Counted from the first letter of the stretch, positions 3,747-19,950 are shown. The stretch: DNA of 20,000 nucleotides from an uncultured virus (IMG/VR IMGVR_UViG_3300024258_000017) (IMGVR_UViG_3300024258_000017); one strand, 5' to 3'. The notes: generated from the sequence alone by a model not told the origin. Numbers and translations are program-made.

Positions 3747-3757
3747 ATGCGTTACTC

Positions 3758-6426: not shown

Positions 6427-6761
6427 TACATACCCACCTTTTCCGGTACAGCAGTAAGCCCAAAAGAATTTTCAGCCTTATTGATATAGACATCAATCGT
6501 TTCTTGTGTCGTCCACTCTTCATATATCCCATCATCATTATTGTAATCAATTGGGTTACACCATTCCAACCTACTGCCCTGTTTAAAAACCTTATGATAA
6601 GACCCGTCGGTGTATTTATCTACTTTCAAACTTTCATACCAATCCATTAATTCCTGTTTATCATAGGCAACCGCTACCATATTTAATTTTTCATAATTAG
6701 CAGGAATTGGATTTAGATATAATTTAAAAACTAATACCTGTGTTATCGTTCTTGTCTGCAT
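6426..6761 (-). CDS. Hypothetical protein
   Basis: 111 aa, GGAGG RBS, TAATG coupling. Confidence 0.75.
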   Translation of the reverse strand: MQTRTITQVLVFKLYLNPIPANYEKLNMVAVAYDKQELMDWYESLKVDKYTDGSYHKVFKQGSRLEWCNPIDYNNDDGIYEEWTTQETIDVYINKAENSFGLTAVPEKVGM

Positions 6762-7018
6762 TACATGCCTCCTGCACCCGCATTCAGAGCCGATACATTT
6801 GATTCAGTTGTATATACACATGTCCAAATTGATTGATTAGAGTACCCTGTCAGAAGGAAAGTATATTTTAGTTCCCAGTCTGCATCATGCAAAGTCATGG
6901 TTGTCACCCCAATTAAAAAATCATTATCATCCCTGTCGCAAGACTTCATTTGAAGTTCTTCGAGAACACTTTGTTCTCCAATCTGATTGAATGTATAGTC
7001 TTTATTTTTAATAAACAT
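6761..7018 (-). CDS. Hypothetical acidic protein
   Basis: 85 aa, AAGGAG RBS. Confidence 0.75.
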   Translation of the reverse strand: MFIKNKDYTFNQIGEQSVLEELQMKSCDRDDNDFLIGVTTMTLHDADWELKYTFLLTGYSNQSIWTCVYTTESNVSALNAGAGGM

Positions 7019-7030
7019 TTGTTCTCCTTT

Positions 7031-7077
7031 TCATCCCACCCCGCAGATTGTAGCAGGATGGGATGACGCTTTTTTTT
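7031..7077. terminator. GC-rich stem-loop with adjacent T/A tract
   Basis: Arms at 7031-7044 and 7053-7066. As minus-strand RNA (UCAUCCCAUCCUGC/GCGGGGUGGGAUGA) it forms 14 bp with 2 G-U pairs. A T8 tract at 7070-7077 follows it on the + strand. Confidence 0.6.
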
Positions 7078-7128
7078 CTTTGAAATAACACACAAATTAA
7101 GGTGTTGAATATCTTGGGTGTGGCTTAG

Positions 7129-7326
7129 TTAATCTGGTTTCATCGTTCGGACGATGACAGCCCTCCGCCTTGGCAGTTTTCTTGCGCTGATCAGCTTCGA
7201 CCCAAGTGTAATTTTTGTGATATTTGTGTCATGAGGGGGTCGCCTCCAAGAGATGAACATGCTATTATAACGATAATAATAGCATCTGTAAATGGTATAG
7301 GCACGATCACGATATAAACCAATCAT
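7129..7326 (-). CDS. Possible small basic ORF (uncertain; region may instead be structured RNA)
   Basis: The ATG at 7326 overlaps the upstream TGA (ATGA), but the 65-aa product is atypically Arg-rich and the region holds several inverted repeats. Confidence 0.3.
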   Translation of the reverse strand: MIGLYRDRAYTIYRCYYYRYNSMFISWRRPPHDTNITKITLGSKLISARKLPRRRAVIVRTMKPD

Positions 7327-8057
7327 ATAATTATTGCCCACCATCCACGCAGAGGGTCTTTATATGGTTTGTTCGGTATAGGAATATGCAATTCTCCGCT
7401 ACAAAACCCTGCCTCGATTAATTTTTCAATATGTTCAATGCTTACTTCATCAATTTCCCCGTTGAATTTATCTTCAGAAAATTTATCAAACACATTGTAT
7501 CCAATTTCGTGTTGTAATATTTCAGTACGGTGTTCAAATAATTTTTCTTCTGTTGTCTCTGGCTCGGAGATATTTTTTACTGGTACTTCTAAAACGAATC
7601 TTCTGTTCCAAGCCTGTATTGCTTCACTCTCTTTAGAAAATACTGCCACTGACCCAAGTCTCATAATGCAAAAACTTGTAACACAATCAACTGAATAATC
7701 AGGATCATTAGTAACCTTGATGTGTCTCTCTTCGACTATACCTTCACCTCCGCAGAACGGGCATGGTTTTATTCCGGTCTTTTTACTTTTGGGTAATGGT
7801 AGTTTATCAAGATCGCTTTGTAACACTGATATTTTATCCGTGTAATCTTTTCTCAAAAGAGTAGGGTTGTTTCCCTTGTTCCACCTTTTAATAATTTCAT
7901 TGTCGGTAATATCCCAATTACAATTTTTTATTTCGACCTTATGACCACAGGAACATTCCCCCCACGAAACATTGAAAGTACTGTACCCACAATTATAAAT
8001 CTTAATGTCCTTGTTACCGCATTTGATACATGGTTTTATTTTAATCCGTTTTGCCAT
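7323..8057 (-). CDS. Lar (restriction alleviation)-family protein with two tandem Zn-binding domains plus an acidic C-terminal domain
   Basis: KPCIKCG...CSCG...IIKRWNK followed by KPCPFCGG...CVTSFC...EAIQAWNRR (Lar signature). Start moved to the ATG at 8057 (TAATG overlap, GAGGT RBS). Confidence 0.75.
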   Translation of the reverse strand: MAKRIKIKPCIKCGNKDIKIYNCGYSTFNVSWGECSCGHKVEIKNCNWDITDNEIIKRWNKGNNPTLLRKDYTDKISVLQSDLDKLPLPKSKKTGIKPCPFCGGEGIVEERHIKVTNDPDYSVDCVTSFCIMRLGSVAVFSKESEAIQAWNRRFVLEVPVKNISEPETTEEKLFEHRTEILQHEIGYNVFDKFSEDKFNGEIDEVSIEHIEKLIEAGFCSGELHIPIPNKPYKDPLRGWWAIII

Positions 8058-8629
8058 TATAAAGACCTCTTGCAATCTCGTAGCCGTTCGAATATTTCTC
8101 CACCTGTTTTAGACCCTGTTGGAAAATATTGATAACCACGATTATTTGGAAGTTCCTTTATCTTCCCGATTAATTTTTTGTCTAAATATACCTTGAGATA
8201 AAAGATTTCTTTAAAGGTAACGCCTTTAGATAATGTTTCTCTCATTTTAACCTCCCAGTTAAACTTAAATAATTGTGATAAATCTTCTCTGACTTTAGGG
8301 TGAAGGGTTACTCGACCCTGAGATGTACAACCAACAGGTATAAAATATCCATCCTGTATCATCGTTGTCAACCGTTCAATAATCTTTTCAAGTGGTTGAA
8401 CTTCCAAATATTTTATGATGTTTTTGTATTGGTGTTTGAAGTCATGGAATTGAGCTGACATATTATCGTGCTTTATTACTTGGCTTATGCTCATAACAAA
8501 ACAGTTCGGTGCATCTTTTACCCGTTCAATGTTCGGATTATCAGGCAGTGATTCTATCCTTGTTGTGATGTATCGTTTAATATATTCAACCTGTTCAGAG
8601 ATACCGTCTATCTTTGAAATTAAATCCAT
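8057..8629 (-). CDS. Hypothetical protein, probable two-gene fusion with an internal start at 8245
   Basis: 190 aa with GGAGG upstream; an internal in-frame GGGAGGTTAAAATG lies at 8256-8243. Confidence 0.7.
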   Translation of the reverse strand: MDLISKIDGISEQVEYIKRYITTRIESLPDNPNIERVKDAPNCFVMSISQVIKHDNMSAQFHDFKHQYKNIIKYLEVQPLEKIIERLTTMIQDGYFIPVGCTSQGRVTLHPKVREDLSQLFKFNWEVKMRETLSKGVTFKEIFYLKVYLDKKLIGKIKELPNNRGYQYFPTGSKTGGEIFERLRDCKRSL

Positions 8630-8637
8630 GGTTTTTA

Positions 8638-8937
8638 TTATCCTCCCACTAATTTATTTGAAGGTGATGTAACTCCACCCTCAATAGATTGCATCGGTTC
8701 ACCGCACTCAGAAAATTCTCCATCACATTCATCAACCTTCTCACCGGAACCACAGGCACAAAGATCAGTACCCCAATTATTGACGCAGTAATTACAACTA
8801 CCATATTCAGAGACTATATCATTTTCATCTTCGTGTCCGTATGTGCTTATGAAGTCATCTTCTGGCATACTGAAATCACCACTATCTAAATGTACTGTCA
8901 TTGCACCGCATTGGCACGTTGAATATTCTACCCTCAT
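8638..8937 (-). CDS. Acidic Cys-rich metal-binding protein (SEC-C-like motif)
   Basis: CQC, CNYC and CACGSG......C......C motifs; ATGA coupling; GAGGA RBS. Confidence 0.7.
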   Translation of the reverse strand: MRVEYSTCQCGAMTVHLDSGDFSMPEDDFISTYGHEDENDIVSEYGSCNYCVNNWGTDLCACGSGEKVDECDGEFSECGEPMQSIEGGVTSPSNKLVGG

Positions 8938-9203
8938 GATTTATCCTCTACTTTTAATGATCTCATTACACCATTACATACTATCTTGCCCTGCCATCTC
9001 ATTCTTGACAAAGCCCTGATAACCTCGGCGGGTTTATAGTCCCTGTTCTCACAGATACCCATAACTAAATTGTGAAAATGTAATTCTCTGTCAACTGACA
9101 ACGCTTCAACAATCAGTGGGATAATTTCTTGAGTCACAGTCTCTTGATTAGCGAGTTCAATTTTTGCTCTTTCTTCTTTACTGTTAAACATGTTTACCCG
9201 CAT
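8934..9203 (-). CDS. Hypothetical protein, possible winged helix
   Basis: 89 aa (the true start may be 9191). PAEVIRALSRMRWQGKIV resembles a wHTH recognition helix and wing; tentative. Confidence 0.6.
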   Translation of the reverse strand: MRVNMFNSKEERAKIELANQETVTQEIIPLIVEALSVDRELHFHNLVMGICENRDYKPAEVIRALSRMRWQGKIVCNGVMRSLKVEDKS

Positions 9204-9528
9204 ACAAGTCAGTTAATATTTTCCCTGCATTTCTTGGAGTAAAATGCAAGTCCCGTTCTAATGGTAGTTCGGCAGACATATTCCCGAATGAAACATTGAT
9301 CTTGGTCTGTTCAATATCAAACTTTGATACAGACCCAACATCAACATCACTACCTCTGGCAATACACCAGATATAATCAAGGTTGTTAGGGTCTTGATTA
9401 ATCAGATACCAAGTTTCTCTCCCATAAGGATTAAATATTTTGGTAATGACATCCTGATTATCGAAGTCACTACCGAGTAGGAATTGTTTTTGAAGTAGTT
9501 CCTGATCTTTCTTTGTGAATAATTTCAC
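9184..9528 (-). CDS. DUF2958-like protein
   Basis: KIFNPYG..TWYL...DP....G.VS..DIE....LPLERDLHF matches the pattern I recall for DUF2958. GTG start after AGGAG. Confidence 0.7.
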   Translation of the reverse strand: MKLFTKKDQELLQKQFLLGSDFDNQDVITKIFNPYGRETWYLINQDPNNLDYIWCIARGSDVDVGSVSKFDIEQTKINVSFGNMSAELPLERDLHFTPRNAGKILTDLYAGKHV

Positions 9529-9530
9529 CG

Positions 9531-9734
9531 TTATCTCCTGCGATTAATTATCTGATTGAGTACATAAGTTGAATCTGTTACCAATATTCTTTTCTCACCC
9601 GAGCAATCCATATTATAGACCTTCCGATGATAGAATCTATTATCATAAACCTTTGTGATCCGGCATTCGTTATGAGTATCCAGTTTGATATCCCATGGAA
9701 GGATAAGAAATATTATGAGTAGTTTAATCTTCAT
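9531..9734 (-). CDS. Small secreted or membrane-anchored protein
   Basis: Likely start MKIKLLIIFLILPW at 9734, followed by a two-Cys domain. Confidence 0.5.
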   Translation of the reverse strand: MKIKLLIIFLILPWDIKLDTHNECRITKVYDNRFYHRKVYNMDCSGEKRILVTDSTYVLNQIINRRR

Positions 9735-9861
9735 CAGAAATACTACTGTCTGACTTGACATCGACCCTCGACAGGCTTCTTAATCCCTTGCCTATCCTAA
9801 ATAAACCAATCGCCAGAAATACTGCCATACATGTGAGACATGTTATTATTAGTATTGTCAT
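9724..9861 (-). CDS. Small single-TM protein (45 aa; not in ORF track)
   Basis: GGAG-N6-ATG; manual translation MTILIITCLTCMAVFLAIGLFRIGKGLRSLSRVDVKSDSSISDED. It fills the gap between neighbouring genes. Confidence 0.6.
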   Translation of the reverse strand: MTILIITCLTCMAVFLAIGLFRIGKGLRSLSRVDVKSDSSISDED

Positions 9862-9874
9862 TGTGTTCTCCGTT

Positions 9875-10480
9875 TTAATCTATTGGAATTTTGCTACCCT
9901 TACCATATATCGTTGGGAGTTCATCGAGTTCATAATTTTCCGTTGTCCCTAATTCTGCAATCACAGGGAGCAATGCTAATTCAAATTCATTATTATCATT
10001 TAGCGTCTTGATTGAATTTATAAAACTGTCAACTTCTTCCTGATTATAATAACAAACTTCTAATCGAATTTCTGTTACCAACTTGGGTTCTTCTTTACTC
10101 CTGTAATTTTTCGACCACCCCTCTGTTCTGGCTTTTTCTATTTGTTCAACGGGTGTCATGTTTGACCACTCCCTGAGAAAATCCAGTATTGCCTTATAGA
10201 GATCATCTTGAGATCGTATATCACCATCAGGAGAATGATACTTTGATAACATAGATATGGTATCACTGAATGATAATTTAAATAGCCCCGCTATTTTCAT
10301 AACTAATACCATTCGTTCACCGTCGCCATTGGCAATAGAAGACGCATGGTTTTTAAAATTACTGGCATTTACAAAACCTTTAAGTGGTGTACCCGGATAC
10401 TGAAAGGCAAAGATTATTTTATAATCATCGAATAGTTTTTCTCTTTCCAATAGTTGTTCTTTAGCTGTTTTGTTATCCAT
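9875..10480 (-). CDS. Hypothetical protein
   Basis: Start moved to MDNKTAK (10480), 1 nt after the upstream stop, with a GGAG RBS. Confidence 0.75.
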   Translation of the reverse strand: MDNKTAKEQLLEREKLFDDYKIIFAFQYPGTPLKGFVNASNFKNHASSIANGDGERMVLVMKIAGLFKLSFSDTISMLSKYHSPDGDIRSQDDLYKAILDFLREWSNMTPVEQIEKARTEGWSKNYRSKEEPKLVTEIRLEVCYYNQEEVDSFINSIKTLNDNNEFELALLPVIAELGTTENYELDELPTIYGKGSKIPID

Positions 10481-10481
10481 A

Positions 10482-10967
10482 TTATTTTTCTCTCCATTCT
10501 GATCTTTCGTTTTCTGTGAAATATTCATGTAGCTTGTTCATGGCAAGATTAAGCCTACCTAATATTTCTTCAGGTGTATGAGTCCTACCGCCTTCAGGAT
10601 AATGTTCTAAGTCATATCGTACTTCATCAATATCAGTCCATGCTTCCATGAGTTCATCTTTTGTGATGCTGTTTTTAGAATTCTCTTCAAGTTCTATTAT
10701 TCTTATCTTCAACTTGTCAATCTCTTCAAGTTTTGCACCATTAGCCATTGATCGTATGACCATCCAAAAGGCTTCCTTCGGGCTAATCCCAAGTTTCCCG
10801 TTCACTTCATCACAAAGTTCCTGTGCTACATCCTTATCCTTTCCCCAGTCATAATCAAGTTTATAGAATCCTGATTCACCTTCCTTTACGATACACACGA
10901 TAAACTTATCGTCATCAGTTTTTACCGTGTCCTGTATAAAATATGCCATCTTAGTTATTTTATCCAT
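10482..10967 (-). CDS. Hypothetical acidic protein with coiled coil
   Basis: Start moved to MDKITK (10967), a TAATG overlap. Confidence 0.75.
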   Translation of the reverse strand: MDKITKMAYFIQDTVKTDDDKFIVCIVKEGESGFYKLDYDWGKDKDVAQELCDEVNGKLGISPKEAFWMVIRSMANGAKLEEIDKLKIRIIELEENSKNSITKDELMEAWTDIDEVRYDLEHYPEGGRTHTPEEILGRLNLAMNKLHEYFTENERSEWREK

Positions 10968-11200
10968 TAATAATCCCATCCAAAAAATTCATACTTTACT
11001 CCGTAATGCTCTAATATAAGAGCCTTTAAATAATCTGCGTTCTCTTGAGAGTCAGGGTCATCGATCTGACACCATTCATTATCCAACAGGGATTCCATTA
11101 ATCCCCCGTCCTCCAACATTGGACAGCCGTATAATATTTCCTCGTCGAAGAGGTAATATGTTCCGGTTTTTTCATCAGCAATAATTTTGTGTACTGTCAT
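10967..11200 (-). CDS. Small highly acidic protein
   Basis: GGAGATTAAAATG gives start MTVHKI at 11200; D/E-rich. Confidence 0.75.
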   Translation of the reverse strand: MTVHKIIADEKTGTYYLFDEEILYGCPMLEDGGLMESLLDNEWCQIDDPDSQENADYLKALILEHYGVKYEFFGWDY

Positions 11201-11273
11201 TTTAATCTCCAATTAATTTAAAATTGTGTTCAGTCTATTATATATTTTTGCAAACTTTGTTCTTTGTTCATAA

Positions 11274-11474
11274 TTATAATGTCCTCTCAGATAAAATAAG
11301 TCCACTATGACTTACTACGATTGATTTTGTCCAACCGTTTTCACTTGGGGCTAATCCTCCGCCGTTTGCCTGAAATTCAAGCCCATCACAAATATTATTA
11401 GCAATTTCTTTTTGATTGTTGGCTGAATCAACGTCTTCCGAAAATTTGATTGATACCACAAAGGTTAATTCCAT
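11274..11474 (-). CDS. Hypothetical protein
   Basis: 66 aa, TAATG-coupled to the end of the AAA module. Confidence 0.7.
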   Translation of the reverse strand: MELTFVVSIKFSEDVDSANNQKEIANNICDGLEFQANGGGLAPSENGWTKSIVVSHSGLILSERTL

Positions 11475-11725
11475 TAGTTCATCCGATCCTGCAAATATTT
11501 TACCTCGAAGTTCAACGCTTCTGGTCTGGTCTTAAAACCTTCCGGCGGGCTTATTACCTCGCCTGTACTCGCAAGTTTGACGCTCCAAGTCTGAGTATCG
11601 TTATCGAATTCTACATTAGATGCTCTGGATACCTTCATCTTACCAAGCTGAGACAGATCAATTAAATCTGTGTACAGTGAATGAACATTACCGTTCGTGT
11701 CAATCATTAATTTAGTTCCTGACAT
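11474..11725 (-). CDS. Conserved-looking 83-aa protein of the DUF2997/DUF1257 neighbourhood
   Basis: GGAG-N9-ATG at 11725. The pattern IDxxGxVxxLYxDxIDLxxLG...RASxVE....W....F..RxEALxxEV.YL resembles small proteins I recall next to DUF2997 genes. Confidence 0.7.
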   Translation of the reverse strand: MSGTKLMIDTNGNVHSLYTDLIDLSQLGKMKVSRASNVEFDNDTQTWSVKLASTGEVISPPEGFKTRPEALNFEVKYLQDRMN

Positions 11726-11897
11726 TGATAGTTCTCCCTGATTTTTTGTAGTATTCAGATTTCTTTTTGACGTTGCCGGATTTTCCGAGCGCACGTTCAA
11801 GTTCAGCCGTTGCATCCTTGCATGATTTACCAGTGAATCCCGACGTTTCGATATTTGTTTTACCGTCGGTTTCGATAGTGATTTTAATTGTTTTCAT
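11712..11897 (-). CDS. DUF2997-family protein
   Basis: IKITIETDG...ETSGFTGKSCKDATAELERALG......SEYY signature; ATGA coupling. Confidence 0.88.
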   Translation of the reverse strand: MKTIKITIETDGKTNIETSGFTGKSCKDATAELERALGKSGNVKKKSEYYKKSGRTINVRN

Positions 11898-12265
11898 CTG
11901 ACCCCCAGAATTAATTCGACCTTACCGTTCTGCAAATTTCTACGTTGTACACGATAACCCTTCTTACGAGCCATCCTCATAGCTACATGGGTAGCATAGT
12001 TCTGTTTTAACAGATCAGCGTTTTGCCCTACACATCTGGCAACGTGTCCATCATACCAATCAGCTTGCAGTTTGTAACCGTTCTCAGATTTCTCAACAGT
12101 CATATCATATTTGCCTGAGAGTTTGATCACAATGTCAGCCTGTTTTGATCCGTAGTAATATCTGGCAGTGGTATTGCGTACCAGTTCAAAACCCATTTCT
12201 TTACAGGCATCTTCCAACGCCTGTAAATCTTTTATCTCAAGTTCAACATCTGTAAAATGTGACAT
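11894..12265 (-). CDS. DUF1257 (Ycf35-like) protein
   Basis: MSHFT.V...IKD..AL..A..EMG...ADWY....LKQNYA.....ARKKGY signature. Confidence 0.88.
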   Translation of the reverse strand: MSHFTDVELEIKDLQALEDACKEMGFELVRNTTARYYYGSKQADIVIKLSGKYDMTVEKSENGYKLQADWYDGHVARCVGQNADLLKQNYATHVAMRMARKKGYRVQRRNLQNGKVELILGVR

Positions 12266-12278
12266 AATTTATTTACCC

Positions 12279-13277
12279 TTAATCCATTTTGATTTTACGT
12301 TTCCAGTTACCTGTAACAGTGGAAACATCTGAAATATCAGCGCATGATTTCATGACGTTGTTCAATGTGCGCTTCAGTTTGCCCGTTGCTTTCTTGTTAT
12401 CTTTGTAAGTGATAACCCCTTTTAAACATGTCTTCCTGAGCGTGGCGAGTTGTTCACCAATGTCAGAATCACCCATGAAATTTAACATCTCAAATTTGTC
12501 AACGAATTTCCTGAGAGTGTTCAGGTTTTTTTCTGTTACAACTTCGCCCTTCTTGATTTTGTCAGTCACGAATGAACACGTCTTCACTGTTTCATCCCTC
12601 AGAGTCCCAACAACGTCACCTAAGAAGGTTTCAATCTCTCTTCGAGCGGTTGCCTGATATTCTCTGGACATTTTTTCGTTCAGTTCAGTTCGCTTGGCAA
12701 AAAATTGATTCGATCTCTTTTTGAAATTTGGTAGGTTCACCTCAAAAAATCTCCACTGTAAAGAGAATTTCAATTTCACAATTTGAGGATCAGGATATAG
12801 AGTCTCAATTTTTTTCGTGAATAATTCAGTGAATTCTTTTGGGGTTCTGGTTCTTTTTGCTCCGGTTCTCTTGTAGATGGCGGGCATACTTTTCTTGAAT
12901 TGAAACATCATGACCTTACGCATTTTGGGATACCCACGAATGAATGAATTGACTGTATCCGTGTACTCTTTTTGAAGTTCTGTTAATCCTTCGATCAATA
13001 CAGGTACAACGCTATCAGGTACAAACTTGGCATTCCCTATCGGGAAGGGGAAACTGTGCTGATCCACCAACGCCCTTGCACGGGATTCAATACGCCTGAA
13101 TGATTTCCTGTCATCAGATGGGATCAAATTCTTACGACCCAAAGTAATGAGTTCTGTTGAAATATCTTTTTGAGTAAATCCCAAATCGTCATGATTCAGT
13201 TTTACCTGACCAGTCCAAAACCTGATATTTAAATCTATCAGAATTCCTGACTTCATTATTTTTTCAATATGGTTCAA
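12279..13277 (-). CDS. DUF3150-like protein
   Basis: LNIRFWTGQVKL...LITLGRKNLI.....F..IESRAR..V.....PF.....FVP, then a helical C-terminus. TTG start after GAGGGT. Confidence 0.75.
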   Translation of the reverse strand: MNHIEKIMKSGILIDLNIRFWTGQVKLNHDDLGFTQKDISTELITLGRKNLIPSDDRKSFRRIESRARALVDQHSFPFPIGNAKFVPDSVVPVLIEGLTELQKEYTDTVNSFIRGYPKMRKVMMFQFKKSMPAIYKRTGAKRTRTPKEFTELFTKKIETLYPDPQIVKLKFSLQWRFFEVNLPNFKKRSNQFFAKRTELNEKMSREYQATARREIETFLGDVVGTLRDETVKTCSFVTDKIKKGEVVTEKNLNTLRKFVDKFEMLNFMGDSDIGEQLATLRKTCLKGVITYKDNKKATGKLKRTLNNVMKSCADISDVSTVTGNWKRKIKMD

Positions 13278-13312
13278 AGTGTTACCCTCAATTTACCCGT
13301 TGTTTTATTTGG

Positions 13313-13346
13313 CGGGGAGAGTGGCGGGTAAAATCCACCCTCCCCG
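13313..13346 (-). promoter_or_regulatory. Intergenic GC-rich RNA hairpin without U tract
   Basis: Minus strand CGGGGAGGGUGG-10 nt loop-CCACUCUCCCCG gives 12 bp with one G-U pair; it is followed by CCAAAUAAAA, not poly-U. Confidence 0.65.
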
Positions 13347-13362
13347 TTTGGTGACAACACAA

Positions 13363-14856
13363 TCAAATTGATATTTTCCGACGGCTTTTTATGTCGGAAA
13401 TTATTGTCGATGCGTTCCGTGCATGTATCTGCACCCATTCCCGCATTTTATCTAATTTTTGTTTCATCGATTTGCTCAGGGGTGTCATTTCTTTTATTGC
13501 TCCCATGATGTCAACCGTATTCAGTTCAGAATTATTTGAAAAGGCTTTGAACATGCCTGATATAATACAATTTTCAATCTCAGCACCGGAATATTCGTGT
13601 GTATGTTCAACCAGTATAGGCAGATCAAAGTTTTTTACGTCACGTTTATTTTTAGTGATATGAATTTTGAAAATTTCAAGACGTTCATGTTCATTGGGTA
13701 AATCCACAGCGAAAATCTGATCAAATCGTCCCGCCCTTAATAGTTCTGGCGGTAATTTTGTAATGTCATTCGCCGTTGCCACAATAAAAACGGGCTTGGT
13801 TCGTTCGTTCATCCATGTTATCAGTGTACCAAATACCCGAGACGTTACGCCCCCGTCGGTCTGACCCGAAGAGTTTATACCGGATAATCCTTTCTCAAGT
13901 TCATCAATCCACAGCACCGACGGACTCATTGACTCCGCCAAATCCAACGCCGTTCTCATGTTCTGTTCTGATTGACCCTGCAATGACCCAAATAATTTTC
14001 CCATGTCAAATTTCAGTAGTGGTAACTCCCAAGAATTTGCCACAGCTTTCGCCGTCAGGGATTTTCCACATCCGGGGACTCCCACAATCAAAATTCCTTT
14101 TGGTGATGGCAATCCAAATTCTTTTGCTTCGGTACTGAATGCAGTCTTACGCTGTGCAAGCCACATTTTCAGCACGTCCAGACCTCCAACGCTGTTCATG
14201 TTCTCTATGCACTGATAATATTCCAGTAGTCCCGATTTCTTAATGTTCTGTGCTTTCTCACGTTGAATAATCTCAGGACAAAAGTATTTCTTTTCTACAA
14301 GTGACAGAGCAAAGGCATTTTCAGCGTCAAATTCAGTCATACCGACGGCTGAATCACAAAGGTGATCAAAGCTACTGTTAATAAATTCAATTCCATTATC
14401 CTCAGCCATTCCGCTCAGGATATTTCCGAGTGACGTTCTATCTGGATACTCAAAATCAACGACCGTGATGTCCTTTTGCAGTTCTATTGGGATGTCCATC
14501 TGGGCGGACACAAAGATTATATATCGTGATGTCGCTTTGCAGAAATGCACCAAGTCTAAAATTGATTGAACGATCATAGGATCATCCATGTAATAATGAA
14601 AGTTGTGTATTACTAAAATTGTGTTCTCAGGAATACTTGAGATTGAGTTCAGGCAGGCAAGAGGATCAGATTCACCCTCTCCGGTTTTAGTTCCGTTCAG
14701 TTCCCAGCCTCTTGTTACCGTCCAACATGCAAAATTCAGCTTTTCAAGTTCAGAGATTCCACGAACTTGCTGTGAAATTCGATGAAGTTCATTTGTATTT
14801 ACGTTCATTACGGGATACCCCGCACGAATGTAATTTGTGATGTCAGTTTTAAACAT
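13363..14856 (-). CDS. Ycf46-type AAA+ ATPase (degenerate N-terminal AAA domain plus intact C-terminal domain)
   Basis: VGGLDVLKMWL, PKGILIVGVPGCGKS (Walker A), VLWIDELEK (Walker B), ATAN (sensor 1) and PPELLRAGRFD (SRH/Arg finger). The N-terminus has IRAGYP and LVIHNFH, as in the Ycf46 family. Confidence 0.93.
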   Translation of the reverse strand: MFKTDITNYIRAGYPVMNVNTNELHRISQQVRGISELEKLNFACWTVTRGWELNGTKTGEGESDPLACLNSISSIPENTILVIHNFHYYMDDPMIVQSILDLVHFCKATSRYIIFVSAQMDIPIELQKDITVVDFEYPDRTSLGNILSGMAEDNGIEFINSSFDHLCDSAVGMTEFDAENAFALSLVEKKYFCPEIIQREKAQNIKKSGLLEYYQCIENMNSVGGLDVLKMWLAQRKTAFSTEAKEFGLPSPKGILIVGVPGCGKSLTAKAVANSWELPLLKFDMGKLFGSLQGQSEQNMRTALDLAESMSPSVLWIDELEKGLSGINSSGQTDGGVTSRVFGTLITWMNERTKPVFIVATANDITKLPPELLRAGRFDQIFAVDLPNEHERLEIFKIHITKNKRDVKNFDLPILVEHTHEYSGAEIENCIISGMFKAFSNNSELNTVDIMGAIKEMTPLSKSMKQKLDKMREWVQIHARNASTIISDIKSRRKISI

Positions 14857-14870
14857 TTTACCCCTTTGTG

Positions 14871-15959
14871 TTAATCGTGAAGTCTTACAGGCATTAACAA
14901 AATAGTTGTATCCGTTCCAACCGGAAAAAATAATGTTGCTTGTAAAGAGTTACCGTATCTCATGATGAATTTTCCCGAGATATTTTTCAGTACGCTCAAG
15001 AGATACCACTTATTATATCCGATTGGTTCAGCGTTCCGGCATAGTGGCATTTTCTCACGTTCCATTTTAAATTCTTGGTGAATATTATTCGTTACCACTT
15101 TCCCCGTCATTCCAGATTTACCGACGGTTACAATCTGTGCATCGTTTTCGCTCAGGGTTCCAAGATTAAAATGTTCAAGATATTTCAGATTAAAATCCTT
15201 TATGTCAAACCTTTTTGACTTGGAATGTTTTGGAATGACGTTCTCATATTCAGGATACCTCATTTCATTCGTTCTGCAAATATATTTGAAGCCAGTTCCT
15301 GATATGATCACACGGTTCTCAATCCGGTTCCCTTCATCGACAAGCTGATTAATTGATACGGTATAATCCAATTTAAGTAGCTTCAATTTTGCCATGAATT
15401 TAACCGCATCGTTCGGGATTAATGCACGTTCACACTTTTTGTTTTTGGTATTGTGCTTAAATGCAGTTGTAATTAATTTGTGTCCGTCGGTAGCGCATAT
15501 CTCTGTTTTGCGCCCCGCTCTGACGTTCACACCGAGTAATTGAGATTTCATTTCATCAGTGGAGGTGAAAGGAAGAGAATCGATAATTCCCTGATTAATT
15601 TCGTCGTTCAGTTCAAAAGCTAATTTCATTTTTTGATCATGTGGATAATTGGGAAGTTCATTTTTATCTGCAATACAGCCAATTGATAATGGAATTCCGT
15701 TTATAGTAGGTAAAAAATCCTTACCCTTGAAATTGATTTCGTTCATGGGTTTTATCAGTGGTGTTTTTGGAATTGCGAATCCAAAAAATGATCCGTTCGT
15801 GGCTGAGTCAGGTTCTACCTGTAAATACCCCTCCAAATTAGTAGCAATGAATTTTCCTTTGTGGAAATACGCTTGCCCCAATACTGGCAGAGTTGATTTC
15901 TTGGGTATTACCAAGTTCAGCAATGCTAATTTTTGTTTTGAAAGTGTGGTCTTGTTCAT
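14871..15959 (-). CDS. dnaN: Divergent DNA polymerase III beta sliding clamp homolog
   Basis: Clamp motifs in the expected order: IPKKSTLPVL, ATNLE, ATDGHKL, YPEYENVIP, IGYNKWYLLSVL and terminal LLMPVR; 362 aa. Confidence 0.88.
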   Translation of the reverse strand: MNKTTLSKQKLALLNLVIPKKSTLPVLGQAYFHKGKFIATNLEGYLQVEPDSATNGSFFGFAIPKTPLIKPMNEINFKGKDFLPTINGIPLSIGCIADKNELPNYPHDQKMKLAFELNDEINQGIIDSLPFTSTDEMKSQLLGVNVRAGRKTEICATDGHKLITTAFKHNTKNKKCERALIPNDAVKFMAKLKLLKLDYTVSINQLVDEGNRIENRVIISGTGFKYICRTNEMRYPEYENVIPKHSKSKRFDIKDFNLKYLEHFNLGTLSENDAQIVTVGKSGMTGKVVTNNIHQEFKMEREKMPLCRNAEPIGYNKWYLLSVLKNISGKFIMRYGNSLQATLFFPVGTDTTILLMPVRLHD

Positions 15960-15969
15960 TTCACCCCTT

Positions 15970-16289
15970 TTATTTTGTGTTCACGTTCTAAAATTAATTC
16001 CAGATTCCGAATTCAGGATGTTCATCCTCGATCATTTCTCTGGCTGTATCAAGAGCGTAAACATGTGCGCTTTTGAAGTCATATTCGTTCAATAAATTTT
16101 CGATTTCATCCAGACCGTTCATAAATATTGTTGAGTCTGATAAATCACTTGAGGACATCCCGCAAGTTCGATTTAAATATTTATCAATAAGTTGTTTTGC
16201 CAAGACTCTTGAGTCATGAGAATCGACGTAGGCGACCTTTTGTTCATGTGTTGACATTATTACCCCATTATTTTGTGTTCACGTTCTAA
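15970..16289. repeat. Exact 22-bp direct repeat, two copies (15970-15991 and 16268-16289)
   Basis: TTATTTTGTGTTCACGTTCTAA in both intergenic gaps, each next to ACCCC (the minus-strand GGGGT RBS). Confidence 0.9.
15994..16257 (-). CDS. Small acidic hypothetical protein
   Basis: 87 aa, GGGGT RBS, bracketed by the 22-bp repeat. Confidence 0.75.
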   Translation of the reverse strand: MSTHEQKVAYVDSHDSRVLAKQLIDKYLNRTCGMSSSDLSDSTIFMNGLDEIENLLNEYDFKSAHVYALDTAREMIEDEHPEFGIWN

Positions 16290-16741
16290 TTAGGCATTAT
16301 CCCAGTATCAGCCATGCTTTTATAATTTTCGCCTGTGACTAATATGTGATCATGTACGGAAACATCAATTGTTTTTAACGCCCGTGCAATTTTTTCGGTA
16401 ATCATTTGGTCATCTCTGGAAAAAGTCAAATTCCCGCTCGGGTGATTGTGTCCGAGGATGACCGCAGAAGCACTATGTTCAATGACTTTTTTCACAACTT
16501 CCCGAGGACATACAAAAGCGTTTGAAATGCTACCCTTGAAAAGAGTCTCGGTCTTGATCACTTTATTTTGACTACTCAGGAAAACAACAATAAAATGTTC
16601 TCTTGAGGTGTTTTTAATTAACGTTCTCAAATGATCAGCACCGTTTACAGATGATAATATTGTATCACCAGTTTTGAGATAAAATCTCTTTGAATATTCA
16701 CGACGCAAAACAGCATCGGAAATTTGATTGATTGTGTTCAT
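16286..16741 (-). CDS. radC: Short RadC-family JAB/MPN metalloprotein
   Basis: REHFIVVFL..QN.VI, PREV, ILGHNHPSG...S.DD (E...HxH...S..D metal site) and DHIL; lacks the N-terminal HhH region. Confidence 0.92.
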   Translation of the reverse strand: MNTINQISDAVLRREYSKRFYLKTGDTILSSVNGADHLRTLIKNTSREHFIVVFLSSQNKVIKTETLFKGSISNAFVCPREVVKKVIEHSASAVILGHNHPSGNLTFSRDDQMITEKIARALKTIDVSVHDHILVTGENYKSMADTGIMPN

Positions 16742-16775
16742 GTTGGTTTACCCGTTTAAATAATATTTTTGTGCG

Positions 16776-16829
16776 AAAAAAAATCCCCGCCCCCGATAAA
16801 AACATGCAAATAAAATTATGAGGGCAGGG
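16776..16829 (-). terminator. Intrinsic terminator-like hairpin upstream of radC
   Basis: Minus strand CCCUGCCCUC...GGGGGCGGGG (10 bp, 2 G-U, 25-nt partly paired loop), followed by A and U8. Confidence 0.6.
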
Positions 16830-16868
16830 TGATATGATGATCTATTTTCGCATTTTTCTCCACTTTTG

Positions 16869-17105
16869 TTATCGGTTTAGTCCACTTATTAAATTTTCAG
16901 CCGTTCCATAACAGTTCTCATATTCAAATAATCTCAGAAATAATTTTGTAGCCAGTTCTTTGTTACAGGCAAGATCAGGATCACACCGCCACCGCCTGTT
17001 TTTTCGGTAGGCAATCAGGTAGTTCTCCGGCATTTGCCGAATTGTATCTGAATAAGGTGCATGAATCAATTTGGTTTTCATAATATACACTAATAGATCA
17101 TTCAT
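16869..17105 (-). CDS. Hypothetical protein
   Basis: 78 aa, GAGG RBS, ATGA overlap with the ORF at 17102-17281. Confidence 0.65.
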   Translation of the reverse strand: MNDLLVYIMKTKLIHAPYSDTIRQMPENYLIAYRKNRRWRCDPDLACNKELATKLFLRLFEYENCYGTAENLISGLNR

Positions 17106-17281
17106 AATATTGCCTCTATATATTCAATTATATCTTCAGCTATTTCTTTCCAATCTTCAATATTAGTAAGATAAAAATAGCTTGAATCAAGCCCTTCTGC
17201 CTTCATATTTGCATCTTCAAAATCATCACAATCCCCAAGATCATGAATTAATCCATCATGTCCAAGTGCTAAATATTTCAT
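17102..17281 (-). CDS. Small acidic protein, paralog B (59 aa; not in ORF track)
   Basis: GGAGGTGAAATG; MKYLALGHDGLIHDLGDCDDFEDANMKAEGLDSSYFYLTNIEDWKEIAEDIIEYIEAIL. Confidence 0.85.
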   Translation of the reverse strand: MKYLALGHDGLIHDLGDCDDFEDANMKAEGLDSSYFYLTNIEDWKEIAEDIIEYIEAIL

Positions 17282-17358
17282 TTCACCTCCTCCTCATATA
17301 TTTTATAAAGTATTATACCCACCAATATACCCAACACTAATAAGCCTATTTCATACAT
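17278..17358 (-). CDS. 26-aa single-TM micropeptide (not in ORF track)
   Basis: GGAG-N8-ATG; MYEIGLLVLGILVGIILYKIYEEEVK; its stop overlaps the next ATG. Confidence 0.6.
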   Translation of the reverse strand: MYEIGLLVLGILVGIILYKIYEEEVK

Positions 17359-17497
17359 TGCTATTCTCCATTATATCTAATATAAGGGCATATATACCTA
17401 AACATATAACCCAGTTCCCATATTCAAACGTGTATCCTGTCCAGGCTGACAGCGATTTAATAAAAAATACACCTATAAATAATATAATAACTCTCAT
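17351..17497 (-). CDS. 48-aa two-TM protein (not in ORF track)
   Basis: AAGGAG RBS, ATGA overlap; MRVIILFIGVFFIKSLSAWTGYTFEYGNWVICLGIYALILDIMENSNV. Confidence 0.65.
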   Translation of the reverse strand: MRVIILFIGVFFIKSLSAWTGYTFEYGNWVICLGIYALILDIMENSNV

Positions 17498-17664
17498 TTT
17501 TTCTCCTTTATTATTGCTATTGCTATTTCAGTCCATTCTTCAATAGACGCAAGATAAAAATAATCTAAACCACAATCCTCGGCAATTTCGTCTGCTGCTT
17601 CAATATCTCCACAATCACCAAGATTATGTATAGTGCCTTTGTCTGTTAATGCTAAATATTTCAT
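17494..17664 (-). CDS. Small acidic protein, paralog A (56 aa; not in ORF track)
   Basis: TAATG-coupled; MKYLALTDKGTIHNLGDCGDIEAADEIAEDCGLDYFYLASIEEWTEIAIAIIKEKK. Confidence 0.85.
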   Translation of the reverse strand: MKYLALTDKGTIHNLGDCGDIEAADEIAEDCGLDYFYLASIEEWTEIAIAIIKEKK

Positions 17665-17852
17665 TATAATGTCACCCTATACGCTAATTTTTCGGTAATA
17701 ACACCATCTTTACAAAGACTATCAACATAATCTATAAAATAGTATCTTATAGTACCGTTATATTGGTTTTGTCTCCATGTCTTTCTATAGTGTTCTTTAA
17801 ATTCAGGATATGCTTCCCAAAAAGCCTTTCTAACTTCTGTTATTGTTTTCAT
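17664..17852 (-). CDS. Small hypothetical phage protein
   Basis: 62 aa, GGAG RBS, coupled on both sides. Confidence 0.75.
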   Translation of the reverse strand: MKTITEVRKAFWEAYPEFKEHYRKTWRQNQYNGTIRYYFIDYVDSLCKDGVITEKLAYRVTL

Positions 17853-18217
17853 TATTTACTCCATTTTATAATAAAACTTCTTGTTTCGTAACTTCTGCTG
17901 CTATGGCTGTACTTCCCACTATCTATAAATCGTATTTCATTAGTGTGAAATTCAACTTGGTATAAATAGCCTAAAGGAAAAGGAATATTCTTATTAATCA
18001 TGTCATATTCAGAATCGGTCAGTACAGACGATAAATAGTTTAATCTATACTTATGGTTGCAAAACTTCCTTTCCTGCCTTAAAAGTACCTTATAGAGCCT
18101 CCTATCCACTATTTCCAGGAATTTAGACTCCTTTATTTGCCTTTCTTTTGGTAAATGGTGTTTATACAGTGCTGGCTGCATGTTTATAGTTCGATATTCA
18201 TTTTCATTTGGTAACAT
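17852..18217 (-). CDS. Hypothetical basic protein
   Basis: 121 aa, AAGGA RBS. Confidence 0.7.
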   Translation of the reverse strand: MLPNENEYRTINMQPALYKHHLPKERQIKESKFLEIVDRRLYKVLLRQERKFCNHKYRLNYLSSVLTDSEYDMINKNIPFPLGYLYQVEFHTNEIRFIDSGKYSHSSRSYETRSFIIKWSK

Positions 18218-18527
18218 TTTTTATCCTTTTATTTATTATTTGAAATATTTTCTTTTCAATTTTACTAAATTTTTCAATTATAATATAATCATTATCAACT
18301 AAAAATTCGTGGGCTTTAATTTCTTTTCCGTTTTTTATTAATAATTCAAATGGATCATTATACTCTATTATCATTTCTTTTATATAAATATTCCCAGTAA
18401 AATTGAGTCTATAATATCTGTATTCTTTCGGTAAATTATGATATAAAGTTATAACATCCTGTATAGTTTTACCAATTATTCTATCGGTTTTATCTATCCA
18501 TCCTAATTTATAGTATTTTAAAATCAT
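18204..18527 (-). CDS. Hypothetical protein
   Basis: 107 aa, AGGAG RBS. Confidence 0.7.
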   Translation of the reverse strand: MILKYYKLGWIDKTDRIIGKTIQDVITLYHNLPKEYRYYRLNFTGNIYIKEMIIEYNDPFELLIKNGKEIKAHEFLVDNDYIIIEKFSKIEKKIFQIINKRIKNVTK

Positions 18528-18534
18528 ATAACTC

Positions 18535-18819
18535 CTAATTTGGAATAAAGCCAGGTATTAAGTGAAATATAGCACCTGATATAAGTAACAAGAATATAAT
18601 AACACTTATTATAATATTAATGCCCGATATTGTATCGTTTAATAGTTGTGATTTATCCTTACCATTTATAAATAAATACCTATTATCGTTTAAAGATTTT
18701 CCAAAATGTATTGTTTTTACGGTTTCCATATCTAATTTTGGAGTACATCCATATTCAGAGTTCAGATCCTCACTATACTTCTCATTTATAAGTATAATCA
18801 TTCGTTTATAAGCTTCCAT
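18535..18819 (-). CDS. Hypothetical protein with C-terminal TM anchor
   Basis: Hydrophobic tail INIIISVIIFLLLISGAIFHLI; exact start uncertain. Confidence 0.6.
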   Translation of the reverse strand: MEAYKRMIILINEKYSEDLNSEYGCTPKLDMETVKTIHFGKSLNDNRYLFINGKDKSQLLNDTISGINIIISVIIFLLLISGAIFHLIPGFIPN

Positions 18820-18986
18820 ATAGCTTTTCTACTATCATTTAACAGCCCTGACAAGTAAAATAACTCCCCATTTATACGGCAGCTTATCCCGTTATCCGTA
18901 TCCCTGGCAATTATCCTAATATCGGATATTTTACAGGTTGGGAAGTCTTTTTGTAATATTTTTTTTATTGTGTCTTTATATTCCAT
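18798..18986 (-). CDS. Hypothetical protein
   Basis: 62 aa, begins at the repeated leader. Confidence 0.7.
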   Translation of the reverse strand: MEYKDTIKKILQKDFPTCKISDIRIIARDTDNGISCRINGELFYLSGLLNDSRKAIWKLINE

Positions 18987-19016
18987 TGTTATTTTCCTTA
19001 TTTTCGGTTGGTAACA

Positions 19017-19178
19017 TTATAACCCCTTTATTATTATTACTTCAATGTTCGGTAAAAAACTATTTATAAATTTATATAAACTTTCACTTCCTATATAATA
19101 ATTATAATTCCAGTTAGATTTATAAGCATTATTTTTTAATCGCCATTTGTAGTTTATTCTGTTTAAATTTTGCTTCAT
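19017..19178 (-). CDS. Small basic N/Y-rich protein (53 aa; not in ORF track)
   Basis: Starts at leader copy 2; MKQNLNRINYKWRLKNNAYKSNWNYNYYIGSESLYKFINSFLPNIEVIIIKGL. Confidence 0.6.
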   Translation of the reverse strand: MKQNLNRINYKWRLKNNAYKSNWNYNYYIGSESLYKFINSFLPNIEVIIIKGL

Positions 19179-19203
19179 TGTTATTTTCCTTATTTTCGGT
19201 AAA

Positions 19204-19434
19204 TTAAAAATTCTTTTTTATAAACATATTTATATGTCTTATAGCTTCTATATAATCCAGTACAAGTGGATCATTTTCCCCAAAATCAGGGATCATTAAG
19301 TTGTTATCGTGAATAAGATCCCCTACTATCTCAGATAAGCACTCAATATCTTTTATTGCTATACTTCTATTATATAAAATAATACTTTCAAATACTCTAA
19401 TTGTTGAATCACTCCAGTATGAAGGATATTCCAT
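19204..19434 (-). CDS. Hypothetical protein
   Basis: 76 aa, AGGAG RBS, TAATG coupling. Confidence 0.7.
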   Translation of the reverse strand: MEYPSYWSDSTIRVFESIILYNRSIAIKDIECLSEIVGDLIHDNNLMIPDFGENDPLVLDYIEAIRHINMFIKKNF

Positions 19435-19595
19435 TATTTTCTCCTATCTCCTATTATAATATTTTCTTCTGATAATATATAATCGTCATATATATTTATT
19501 TCTTTTTTTAGACAAATTTCTTCAGCTTCTGCCAAATTTTTGGCAAATATGACTGAATTAAAGCCAGTCTCAAGATGTATTAAGTTAAATTTCAT
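19434..19595 (-). CDS. Small hypothetical protein (53 aa; not in ORF track)
   Basis: MKFNLIHLETGFNSVIFAKNLAEAEEICLKKEINIYDDYILSEENIIIGDRRK; fills the gap and its stop overlaps the next ATG, but no clear RBS. Confidence 0.6.
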   Translation of the reverse strand: MKFNLIHLETGFNSVIFAKNLAEAEEICLKKEINIYDDYILSEENIIIGDRRK

Positions 19596-19605
19596 TTTAT
19601 TTTAA

Positions 19606-19950
19606 TTAATAAATATAATCGTTTAATATTTTAGCTTGATTTATACTACAAAGCTCTTCAAAATTACTTGGTAGCTCTTCAGTACCTTGAAAGAAAGCAT
19701 CACATAATAATTCAAGTTTTAAATTATAAATTTCCAGTCCATAATAATTTAGACAATCATTATATGTAAATAAATACAAGCTATCACCTTCCCTGAATAG
19801 TTCATAATCATCACTTGTTCCCATACCTACAACTGTTTTAAACTTTTTATATTCCATCGTACATGGTGGGCTATAATATTGGTTTGGTACGCTTTCCCAA
19901 TATTCTATATCTTGTTTGGTTATCGTTATTTTTAAGTTATTTTGTTTCAT
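19606..19950 (-). CDS. Acidic hypothetical protein
   Basis: 114 aa, starts at leader copy 3. Confidence 0.75.
   Translation of the reverse strand: MKQNNLKITITKQDIEYWESVPNQYYSPPCTMEYKKFKTVVGMGTSDDYELFREGDSLYLFTYNDCLNYYGLEIYNLKLELLCDAFFQGTEELPSNFEELCSINQAKILNDYIY

Follow-up and report, generated by a model that had tools for sequence, protein, structure and literature searches.

Five adjacent minus-strand genes in a 20,000-nucleotide (nt) stretch of DNA from an uncultured virus (IMG/VR IMGVR_UViG_3300024258_000017), the whole of which was analysed and is called the window below, probably form one conserved protein-remodelling module with a shared C-terminal address tail, a reading to which we assign a probability of about 0.6. 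The genes occupy positions 11474-14856, are co-oriented and closely packed, and encode an AAA+ ATPase, a DUF3150 protein, a DUF1257 protein, a DUF2997 protein and a protein of 83 amino acids (aa). We propose that they represent the mobile-element form of a Ycf46-type AAA+ module and that they would act as one protein-remodelling machine. The parts are known families and one unnamed family; their assembly, the tail and the function are undescribed in the literature that we searched. A search on DUF3150, DUF1257 and DUF2997 found no functional work, papers that name ycf46 or ycf35 proved to be largely reports of plastid genomes, and a further search found no description of the module or of the shared tail, most subscription journals lying outside these searches. 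The module comprises the following features.

13363..14856, minus strand: Ycf46-type AAA+ ATPase, 497 aa (PF00004, phrog_8638)
13366..13386, minus strand: C-terminal tail of the ATPase, SRRKISI, of the type R-[KR]-hydrophobic-x-hydrophobic (from the translation)
12279..13277, minus strand: DUF3150 protein, 332 aa, TTG start (PF11348)
12282..12302, minus strand: C-terminal tail of the DUF3150 protein, KRKIKMD, same motif as the ATPase tail (from the translation)
11894..12265, minus strand: DUF1257 (Ycf35-like) protein, 123 aa (PF06868)
11712..11897, minus strand: DUF2997 protein, 61 aa (PF11211)
11474..11725, minus strand: fifth protein, 83 aa, unnamed family (phrog_38408; start aligned by homologues)

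Composition and recurrence of the five-gene set

The coordinates bear out an earlier note on this DNA, which had described five adjacent co-oriented genes with the last three overlapping or coupled and a final product of 83 aa. An 85-nt gap separates the ATPase gene from DUF3150 and a 13-nt gap separates DUF3150 from DUF1257, after which DUF1257 and DUF2997 share a 4-nt ATGA overlap and DUF2997 and the fifth gene overlap by 14 nt. The fifth gene starts at an internal ATG at 11725, behind a GGGAGA box, from which twenty homologues align to give the 83-aa product, and exactly the same product is present in a public protein library. All four domain calls of that note scored above the curated Pfam cut-offs: PF00004 on the ATPase (E 1.5e-29, 103.6 bits vs a cut-off of 21.2), PF11348 on residues 11-270 of the DUF3150 protein (76.9 bits vs 24.9), PF06868 on the DUF1257 protein (46.6 bits vs 22.2) and PF11211 on the DUF2997 protein (57.6 bits vs 24.1).

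We surveyed the neighbourhoods of the 80 best viral and 80 best cellular matches to the window ATPase (confirmed candidates: 188/218 viral, 593/602 cellular), counting same-strand partners within 8 kilobases (kb) of the ATPase gene. The counts below are restricted to loci whose ATPases are non-identical and whose flanks reach 4 kb or more on each side (53 viral, 49 cellular).

DUF1257 near the ATPase: viral 46/53, cellular 25/49
DUF2997 near the ATPase: viral 43/53, cellular 26/49
DUF1257 and DUF2997 near the ATPase: viral 43/53, cellular 23/49
DUF3150 near the ATPase: viral 24/53, cellular 0/49
Fifth family near the ATPase: viral 19/53, cellular 2/49
All five genes: viral 12/53, cellular 0/49
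ATPase alone: viral 7/53, cellular 21/49

By these counts, the core of the module is the ATPase, DUF1257 and DUF2997, with DUF3150 and the fifth family as additions typical of mobile elements. The set is no chance neighbourhood: the arrangement is met with in unrelated phages, on a plasmid and in cellular genomes far more often than chance would allow, and the earlier expectation that the genes would co-occur in unrelated genomes was upheld, all five being present at 12 of the 53 viral loci.

Matches to the ATPase were found in 139 phage records, and in 22 of these the match spans 80% or more of the protein. In both Rhizobium phage RHph_I4 and Aeromonas phage HJ05 the ATPase gene is followed, in order, by genes for a ~210-aa protein, DUF1257, DUF2997 and a ~120-aa protein that is a member of the window's fifth family, and replication-initiator-like and DnaB genes then follow the module. 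Cultured phages that share this gene order include the Rhizobium phages RHph_I4 and vB_RleS_L338C. Manganitrophus plasmid CP114559 carries, in sequence, a JAB gene, a hypothetical gene, AAA, DUF1257, DUF2997, DUF3150 and an 84-aa fifth-family protein; its JAB gene thus lies two genes upstream of the ATPase, and a RadC-like JAB gene is also found upstream of the module in the window. A Streptococcus satellite record ends 630 bp past the ATPase, so its partners cannot be judged. Conjugative plasmids of enterobacteria also yield many matches to the ATPase at E<=1e-30 (720 records, of which 80 reach a coverage of 80% or more), and these may be IetA-type or other AAA proteins. The module had been described as self-contained, which holds insofar as it is a conserved set on mobile elements, but its second gene is replaceable, being a non-DUF3150 protein in the Rhizobium and Aeromonas phages in which the tail is nevertheless kept.

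The fifth protein matches phrog_38408 weakly (E 6.4e-6), and no Pfam match was found for it or for any of 21 family members. The family core has the consensus RASHVEP, which reads RASNVEF in the window. Among 1.84 billion entries, a profile of the family matched 4071 cluster representatives at E<=1e-3, of which 1444 reached E<=1e-10, and the module copies on the Manganitrophus plasmid and in the Rhizobium and Aeromonas phages each include a member. The 83-aa protein belongs to a large family for which Pfam has no model, and it may serve as a small accessory subunit.

The ATPase, the DUF1257-DUF2997 pair and DUF3150

The ATPase matches phrog_8638 over residues 1-484 (E 1.2e-133), and its best solved-structure match by sequence is Cdc48, with p97 (E 7e-60). 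Among NCBIfam models, those for PAN, CDC48 and FtsH matched, each far under its cut-off (TIGR01243 CDC48, 101.6 bits vs 802.65), and close relatives carry the JGI label 'SpoVK/Ycf46/Vps4 family'. Sequence comparison places the protein in the classical Cdc48/PAN/FtsH clade, in agreement with its earlier assignment to the classical protein-remodelling AAA clade. In an alignment of 41 homologues (42-56% identity), Walker A residues G259, G262, G264 and K265, Walker B residues D318 and E319 and arginine finger R377 are invariant, and sensor 1 N363, arginine finger R374 and the aromatic pore-loop residue F289 are kept in at least 90%; the Walker A and B motifs, sensor 1 and arginine finger that had been reported as intact are thus conserved across these homologues.

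The AlphaFold2 (AF2) model of the ATPase, with a predicted local distance difference test score (pLDDT) of 89.5, consists of an N-terminal alpha/beta domain of ~190-240 residues with a helical lid, followed at residues ~245-480 by an active-type classical AAA domain and its lid. It aligns with p97/Cdc48 D1-D2 over ~520-550 columns at a TMq of 0.65-0.69. The motif GxxxxGK[ST] occurs in the first 235 aa of 0/41 homologues and in the remainder of 41/41. Because the P-loop is found only in the second half in all 41 homologues, we read the ATPase as a putatively nucleotide-dead D1-like domain joined to a predicted active D2 domain, without the Cdc48 N domain. The N-terminal double-psi-barrel is not present in the model, which opens with the alpha/beta D1-like domain at residue 1. 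From model and alignment together, the protein looks Cdc48-like yet without two defining features, namely the double-psi-barrel N domain and two nucleotide-binding AAA domains.

We know of no established mechanism for Ycf46 or Ycf35, although both have been recognised for decades as conserved in cyanobacteria and red-lineage plastids. Cyanobacterial and plastid Ycf46, Ycf35 and DUF2997 appear to be the same three families as the trio in the window, and the neighbourhood that marks the Ycf46 family, DUF1257 and DUF2997 beside the ATPase, is seen here too, both genes standing directly downstream. Unlike the cyanobacterial trio, the set in the window is phage-borne and has two extra genes, for DUF3150 and the 83-aa family. 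The window ATPase resembles cyanobacterial plasmid and chromosomal homologues over its full length, N-terminal half included, at 37-40% identity over 95-96% of the protein (Pseudanabaena, Geminocystis and Microcystis plasmids; loci L143 and L157). At cyanobacterial locus L143, DUF1257 lies 153 nt downstream of the ATPase gene, and the ATPase ends in ...QRLEF. Synechococcus Ycf46 belongs to a three-gene stress-induced operon, and work on its interaction with KaiC and on CO2 use is cited; the accessible portion of that paper deals with stress induction, KaiC and CO2 use and gives neither a mechanism nor a tail (PMC13683863). Within our survey, the Ycf46-type ATPase gene is closely followed at 16 loci by a gene for a RecA/KaiC-like ATPase of ~288 aa (L009:5777-6643; RecA E 8.9e-14, KaiC-type E 8e-5), and this neighbour and the published Ycf46-KaiC interaction may be linked.

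DUF1257 and DUF2997 are small, strongly conserved proteins. In DUF1257, Ser2 is present in 55/55 homologues with a residue there, His3 in 46/55 and Tyr90 in 54/56; in DUF2997, G12, G23 and the sole cysteine, C26, are invariant in 58/58 homologues. Locus L006 encodes a natural DUF1257-DUF2997 fusion of 193 aa, and the ESM Atlas returned for DUF1257 only DUF1257-type clusters and one fused DUF1257-DUF2997 cluster. These natural fusions, together with the translational coupling of the two genes in the window, argue that DUF1257 and DUF2997 act as an obligate pair. The Atlas gave no match for DUF2997 at >=0.9, a search of the DUF1257 sequence against solved structures gave nothing below E 0.05, and a search for longer or fused forms of DUF2997 yielded one uninformative 151-aa fragment on a 736-bp contig. 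Seemingly long 'fusions' of either protein at L090, L136, L105, L056 and L067 were rejected as over-extended gene calls with the domain at the C-terminal end, leaving L006 as the one true two-domain DUF1257-DUF2997 gene among the loci.

The conserved residues of the pair also bear on a redox reading, in which the module would be a redox- or iron-sulfur-linked maturation chaperone: DUF1257 and DUF2997, the latter through its cysteine, would take charge of a cofactor, and a radical enzyme would be loaded or activated by the ATPase. Invariant Cys26 and the nearly invariant Ser2-His3 of DUF1257 speak for this, as does the cyanobacterial cluster of DUF2997, ycf35 (DUF1257) and the ferredoxin gene fed7 that is named in a review (PMC4284462). 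So does an NrdG-like radical-SAM gene, found immediately upstream of the ATPase gene and in the same orientation at 34/165 loci (17 viral, 17 cellular), which encodes a protein of ~200 aa (Fer4_12 E 1.4e-37; phrog_626; L132:7359-7961, with further examples at L009, L085 and L121). An NrdD-like partner was not seen among the recurrent neighbours of these radical-SAM loci. Family searches of the window's reading frames, however, found no radical-SAM or ferredoxin gene, a single cysteine per 61-aa protein makes a thin case for a cluster site, and the tails on ParB-like and HhH proteins described below would be left unexplained, so we consider this reading very improbable.

The AF2 model of the DUF3150 protein (pLDDT 82.7; predicted template-modelling score 0.75) comprises a small N-terminal beta sheet, very long helices and a C-terminal four-helix bundle, with the last eight residues disordered. 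A Foldseek search of this model against the PDB found nothing at E<=1e-3, the matches of a wide structure search were all generic four-helix bundles confined to residues 196-325 (best Z 11.5, against a bar of ~13 for helical folds), the sequence found nothing below E 0.05 among solved structures, and tblastn found no match in phage records. The earlier picture of an ATPase with small partners and a helical partner is consistent with the DUF1257-DUF2997 fusion, the largely helical DUF3150 model and the shared tail.

DUF3150 also occurs in a second, different ATPase context. On the Pseudomonas megaplasmid NZ_CP146204.1 (L166, 4862-10054), a 408-aa DUF3150 protein is encoded between a MoxR-type AAA ATPase and a VWA protein, and RecT and lambda-exonuclease genes adjoin it. 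What this locus has in common with the module is a mobile element on which DUF3150 is encoded near an AAA+ ATPase, here two genes further downstream, and recombination genes are close by; the differences are that the ATPase is of MoxR type (344 aa), the partner is a VWA protein, DUF1257 and DUF2997 are lacking, and the DUF3150 protein has no arginine tail.

A C-terminal tail common to the ATPase and its partners

In the window the ATPase and the DUF3150 protein end alike, in SRRKISI and KRKIKMD. Among the 44 called open reading frames (ORFs) of the window, only these two have [RK][RK][ILVM]x[ILVMAF] in their last nine residues; the background of this pattern, which was picked after looking, is 0.4% of nine-residue windows. 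Across the ATPase family the C-terminus reads ...R-[KQR]-[LIVM]-x-hydrophobic at or near its end, and cyanobacterial and archaeal homologues carry the tail as well. An independent database sample has R-x-hydrophobic in the last 10 residues of 35/41 DUF3150 relatives, and the tail arginine R327 is one of just three columns, with M1 and Y116, that are invariant in 31 DUF3150 homologues. The following pairs each come from one locus.

ATPase ...RAATLDL, DUF3150 ...RASMLEL
ATPase ...GRRIDA, DUF3150 ...GRVIDIE
ATPase ...GGRKLAN, DUF3150 ...GARKLAA
ATPase ...RRRVAPS.., DUF3150 ...RRRVMRMD

When ATPase and DUF3150 tails of the same locus were compared, the best five-residue score was 13.5 vs 10.7 +/- 0.57 for shuffled pairings (0/5000; 32 pairs). 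With one representative per lineage it was 15.7 vs 10.9 +/- 1.1 (0/20000; 12 lineages, the representatives being hand-picked and including two that do not match). Comparison of ATPase tails with those of DUF1257 or of the fifth protein gave no excess over shuffled pairings, and comparison with DUF2997 tails gave a small one (44/5000). The tails of the ATPase and DUF3150 thus appear to co-vary locus by locus.

The tail is found on other proteins of the loci too. In the Aeromonas and Rhizobium phages the products of the second gene, which are not DUF3150 proteins, end in ...RNRKLKL and ...TRRAVKL, and 8/16 ParB-like proteins bear the tail, compared with a background of 41/2690 (1.5%) for the tail pattern in all other ORFs. 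In Gastranaerophilales-type genomes, two to three HHH_3 (ComEA-like) paralogues per locus end in ER.IDL, and the neighbouring ATPases end in GGR.LD[IVF]. Such paralogues, with ER.IDL or GR.IDF ends, lie at L121:4431-5243, L132:6391-7359, L139:4504-5199 and 6652-7353, and L159:30-791. In the L009-L029 lineage (e.g. L019:7039-7968, L011), the ParB-like protein encoded directly upstream of the ATPase ends in ...KRKKIRVGE or ...KRRIRMGE, and in the L019, L024 and L026 phages the ATPase itself has lost the tail and the upstream ParB-like protein has the motif. A second dialect of ATPase tail, ...NPF[IL]..., was seen at eight loci (L017, L107, L108, L116, L119, L122, L141 and L146), all of which except L146 have a radical-SAM neighbour.

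In cellular genomes the tail goes with the DUF1257-DUF2997 pair. Our first, strict tail pattern overlooked many tails and produced a misleading 'no tail' class among viral loci, and the length of the C-terminal extension was used instead. DUF1257/DUF2997 was nearby at 28/37 loci whose cellular ATPase extends at least 8 aa past the conserved lid and at 0/12 loci whose ATPase stops at the lid (Fisher p 3e-6, a value that ignores relatedness).

We considered two other meanings for the tail. One is that it is a sliding-clamp-binding peptide, through which the ATPase, DUF3150 and the other carriers would dock on the phage or host beta clamp at the replisome. A clamp gene does adjoin the module in the window:

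14871..15959, minus strand: DnaN-like sliding clamp, 362 aa, context and not core (phrog_947, TIGR00663)

This clamp is divergent (phrog_947 E 1.7e-20; TIGR00663 E 1e-17, the latter below cut-off); its gene ends 14 nt upstream of the ATPase start, and the two genes probably share a transcript. Bacterial clamp ligands follow a consensus of the QL[SD]LF type, and the tail resembles them in lying at the extreme C-terminus with a hydrophobic-x-hydrophobic core; its carriers elsewhere are DNA proteins, and docking on a host clamp would account for the lack of an evident dedicated receptor gene. However, a clamp gene is found within 8 kb of the ATPase at just 5/164 other loci, a frequency that also rules it out as a core member, and SRRKISI and KRKIKMD have neither the Gln nor the Leu-x-Leu-Phe of this consensus. 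Archaeal members have similar tails and not PIP-box-like ones, and in cellular genomes the tail tracks DUF1257/DUF2997 and no clamp gene. Clamp binding is thus decidedly unlikely as the tail's purpose.

The other meaning is that of a degron, read by host ClpXP or by the pore of the unfoldase in the module itself, which would set the lifetime of the ATPase and DUF3150. The tail is disordered in the models of both proteins, as degrons are, and ...SRRKISI resembles C-motif-2 of MuA, a ClpX degron that reads ...QNRRKKAI (PMC12723719): each has a basic pair followed by aliphatics at the C-terminus, and MuA's is recognised by an AAA+ ring. The module differs from the ClpX/MuA case in that the ATPase is of another family, many of its lineages have unlike tails, and no protease partner is encoded in the window. 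Dialects that are unlike any ClpX motif (...ATLDL with ...SMLEL, ...GRRIDA with ...GRVIDIE) still match within their locus, the tail is also borne by archaeal and cyanobacterial homologues, and its co-occurrence with DUF1257/DUF2997 would not be expected of a host-protease tag. We regard a degron as improbable.

The shared tail invites comparison with Cdc48, p97 and VAT. Cofactors of p97/Cdc48 dock by short motifs (VIM, VBM, SHP), and proteasomal ATPases have HbYX tails; we know of no p97 cofactor that has a tail in common with the ATPase. The likeness is that the model of the window ATPase superposes on D1-D2 and that its partner has a short, disordered, arginine-containing peptide of docking type. 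The window ATPase differs in lacking the double-psi-barrel, in having a D1 without Walker A and in bearing the same tail as its partner.

Genomic context and proposed role

From ~600 to 20000, nearly the whole window is a single leftward block of tightly spaced genes, with a tail-protein fragment on the opposite strand at the left window edge. Further features of this block are as follows.

16286-16741, minus strand: RadC-like JAB protein (PF04002 E 8e-38), upstream of the module
11274-11474, minus strand: 66-aa ORF, starting on the last base of the fifth gene's stop codon
9184-9528, minus strand: DUF2958 protein
7323-8075, minus strand: 250-aa protein with a Lar-like restriction-alleviation domain
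4793-5887, minus strand: tyrosine integrase
3012-3746, minus strand: N6-adenine-type methyltransferase fragment-like protein

The integrase, methyltransferase, Lar-like and DUF2958 genes support a phage early region as the context. Translation of the 66-aa ORF may be coupled to that of the module; the ORF matches no family, and none of the 164 other loci has a relative. In the final 3 kb of the window (17000-20000), G+C drops from about 0.37-0.41 to 0.25-0.31, and this part is full of tiny leftward ORFs (53-121 aa) with almost no family matches. Scans of the window for promoters and terminators gave no excess over shuffled sequence (18 promoter-like and 6 terminator-like sites vs 19.6 and 4.9), tRNA and Rfam searches of it found none, and a DNA search of the region against phage records gave no match. 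Near-identical DNA is present in many seawater metagenome runs. In four metatranscriptome runs from seawater or marine samples, short contigs align with zero mismatches to portions of the genes for the clamp, ATPase, DUF3150 and DUF1257, which could reflect either expression of the module or carried-over DNA.

Given its place in the block, the module had earlier been linked to host takeover or counter-defence. On this reading an unfoldase guided by its partners would take apart a defence or housekeeping complex of the host soon after infection. The surrounding small phage genes (Lar-like, methyltransferase, DUF2958, RadC-like JAB) are in keeping with this idea, as is the enrichment of the set on phages and plasmids, DUF3150 being near 24/53 viral and 0/49 cellular ATPases. 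However, the four partners have no PADLOC match and no other match to a defence or anti-defence family, and the ATPase matches only the related IetA family. The core trio is common in cellular genomes (23/49), and cyanobacterial Ycf46 is treated in print as a stress-induced, KaiC-interacting host protein (PMC13683863). The genes that recur beside the ATPase encode ParB-like, RecA/KaiC-like, DnaB, primase, clamp, clamp-loader and replication-initiator-like proteins, and these belong to replication, partition and recombination and not to anti-defence; the tail-bearing clients, moreover, are encoded by the element itself. The earlier suggestion is therefore unsupported, and we now judge counter-defence to be quite unlikely.

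The relation to IetA raises a further possibility, a toxin-antitoxin or abortive-infection pair of IetAS/SgiAT type in which the AAA+ protein would restrain a toxic partner. IetAS and SgiAT combine an AAA+ ATPase with a subtilisin-like protease and have roles in plasmid stability and against phages. The SGI1 antitoxin is described as a SpoVK/Ycf46/Vps4-type AAA+ protein (PMC10954446), the window ATPase matches PADLOC IetA (best E 1e-26) and NCBIfam IteA, and carriage on mobile elements is a shared trait. The IteA score, however, is far under the cut-off (NF042959, 85.9 bits vs 510), the match is limited to the generic AAA domain (residues 244-474), the window has other partners and no S8 protease gene, and no subtilisin-like or other protease domain was found among its ORFs. 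We give this possibility next to no credence.

We therefore return to the protein-remodelling module with a shared tail. In the mechanism that we propose, the ATPase would form a stacked hexamer and thread polypeptides through its pore, and DUF1257-DUF2997 would be its fixed cofactor, acting as adaptor or regulator. The tail would serve as an address by which the ATPase and its clients or adaptors all dock at a single putative site. First candidates for this site are the DUF1257-DUF2997 pair or the D1-like ring, which we favour because the tail extension tracks the pair in cellular genomes. Since the nameable tail carriers are DNA-binding (ParB-like, HhH) and the neighbours are replication and partition genes, we suggest, tentatively and at less than even odds, that the module acts while the phage or plasmid is being replicated or partitioned, remodelling protein assemblies on the DNA or removing them. 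A more specific and rather unlikely version would have the tail as an encoded address tag that DUF1257-DUF2997 reads and the ATPase as a Cdc48-like segregase that pulls DNA-bound or encircling proteins off replicating DNA. That DNA could be phage, plasmid and perhaps cyanobacterial or plastid DNA, and candidate clients would be ParB clamps, HhH proteins, DUF3150 and perhaps the sliding clamp. In contrast to Cdc48/p97, a ubiquitin-type tag would not be required.

Several observations weigh against this interpretation. The module is not universal, as the ATPase stands without partners at 7/53 viral and 21/49 cellular loci, the fifth gene is absent at 34/53 viral loci, and L004, the nearest viral contig found with a single protein (39% identity), has zero partners within 5.8 kb. 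Both locus sets are the best 80 matches to the window ATPase and not a random sample, and the survey profiles were grown from the window's own proteins and Pfam-checked on subsets only. With regard to the tail, it has low pLDDT and is disordered in the ATPase monomer model, with no sign of docking in cis; L010 and L036 have a DUF3150 tail without a matching ATPase tail; and the link between tail and DUF1257/DUF2997 may stem from shared descent and not from contact. Finally, the idea of DNA-bound clients rests on tail carriers of other lineages, and the DUF3150 model matches no solved fold clearly.

New here are the predicted pseudo-D1 domain of the ATPase, the association of the tail with DUF1257/DUF2997 in cellular genomes, the presence of the tail on HhH proteins and on the non-homologous second gene product of two cultured phages, and the size of the fifth family. 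The analysis brings DUF3150, DUF1257, DUF2997, the ATPase and a large unnamed 83-aa family together as what appears to be one portable set on phages and plasmids, and the apparently co-evolving C-terminal peptide that is common to the ATPase and its variable partners opens this orphan system to experiment, for which the cultured Rhizobium phages with the same gene order are available at the bench. If the machine does strip proteins from DNA, this would be a new principle for the replication and partition of mobile elements. Were the segregase version to prove true, the module would be a prokaryotic and viral, ubiquitin-free counterpart of p97-driven chromatin extraction, and the orphan genes ycf46 and ycf35 would gain a function.

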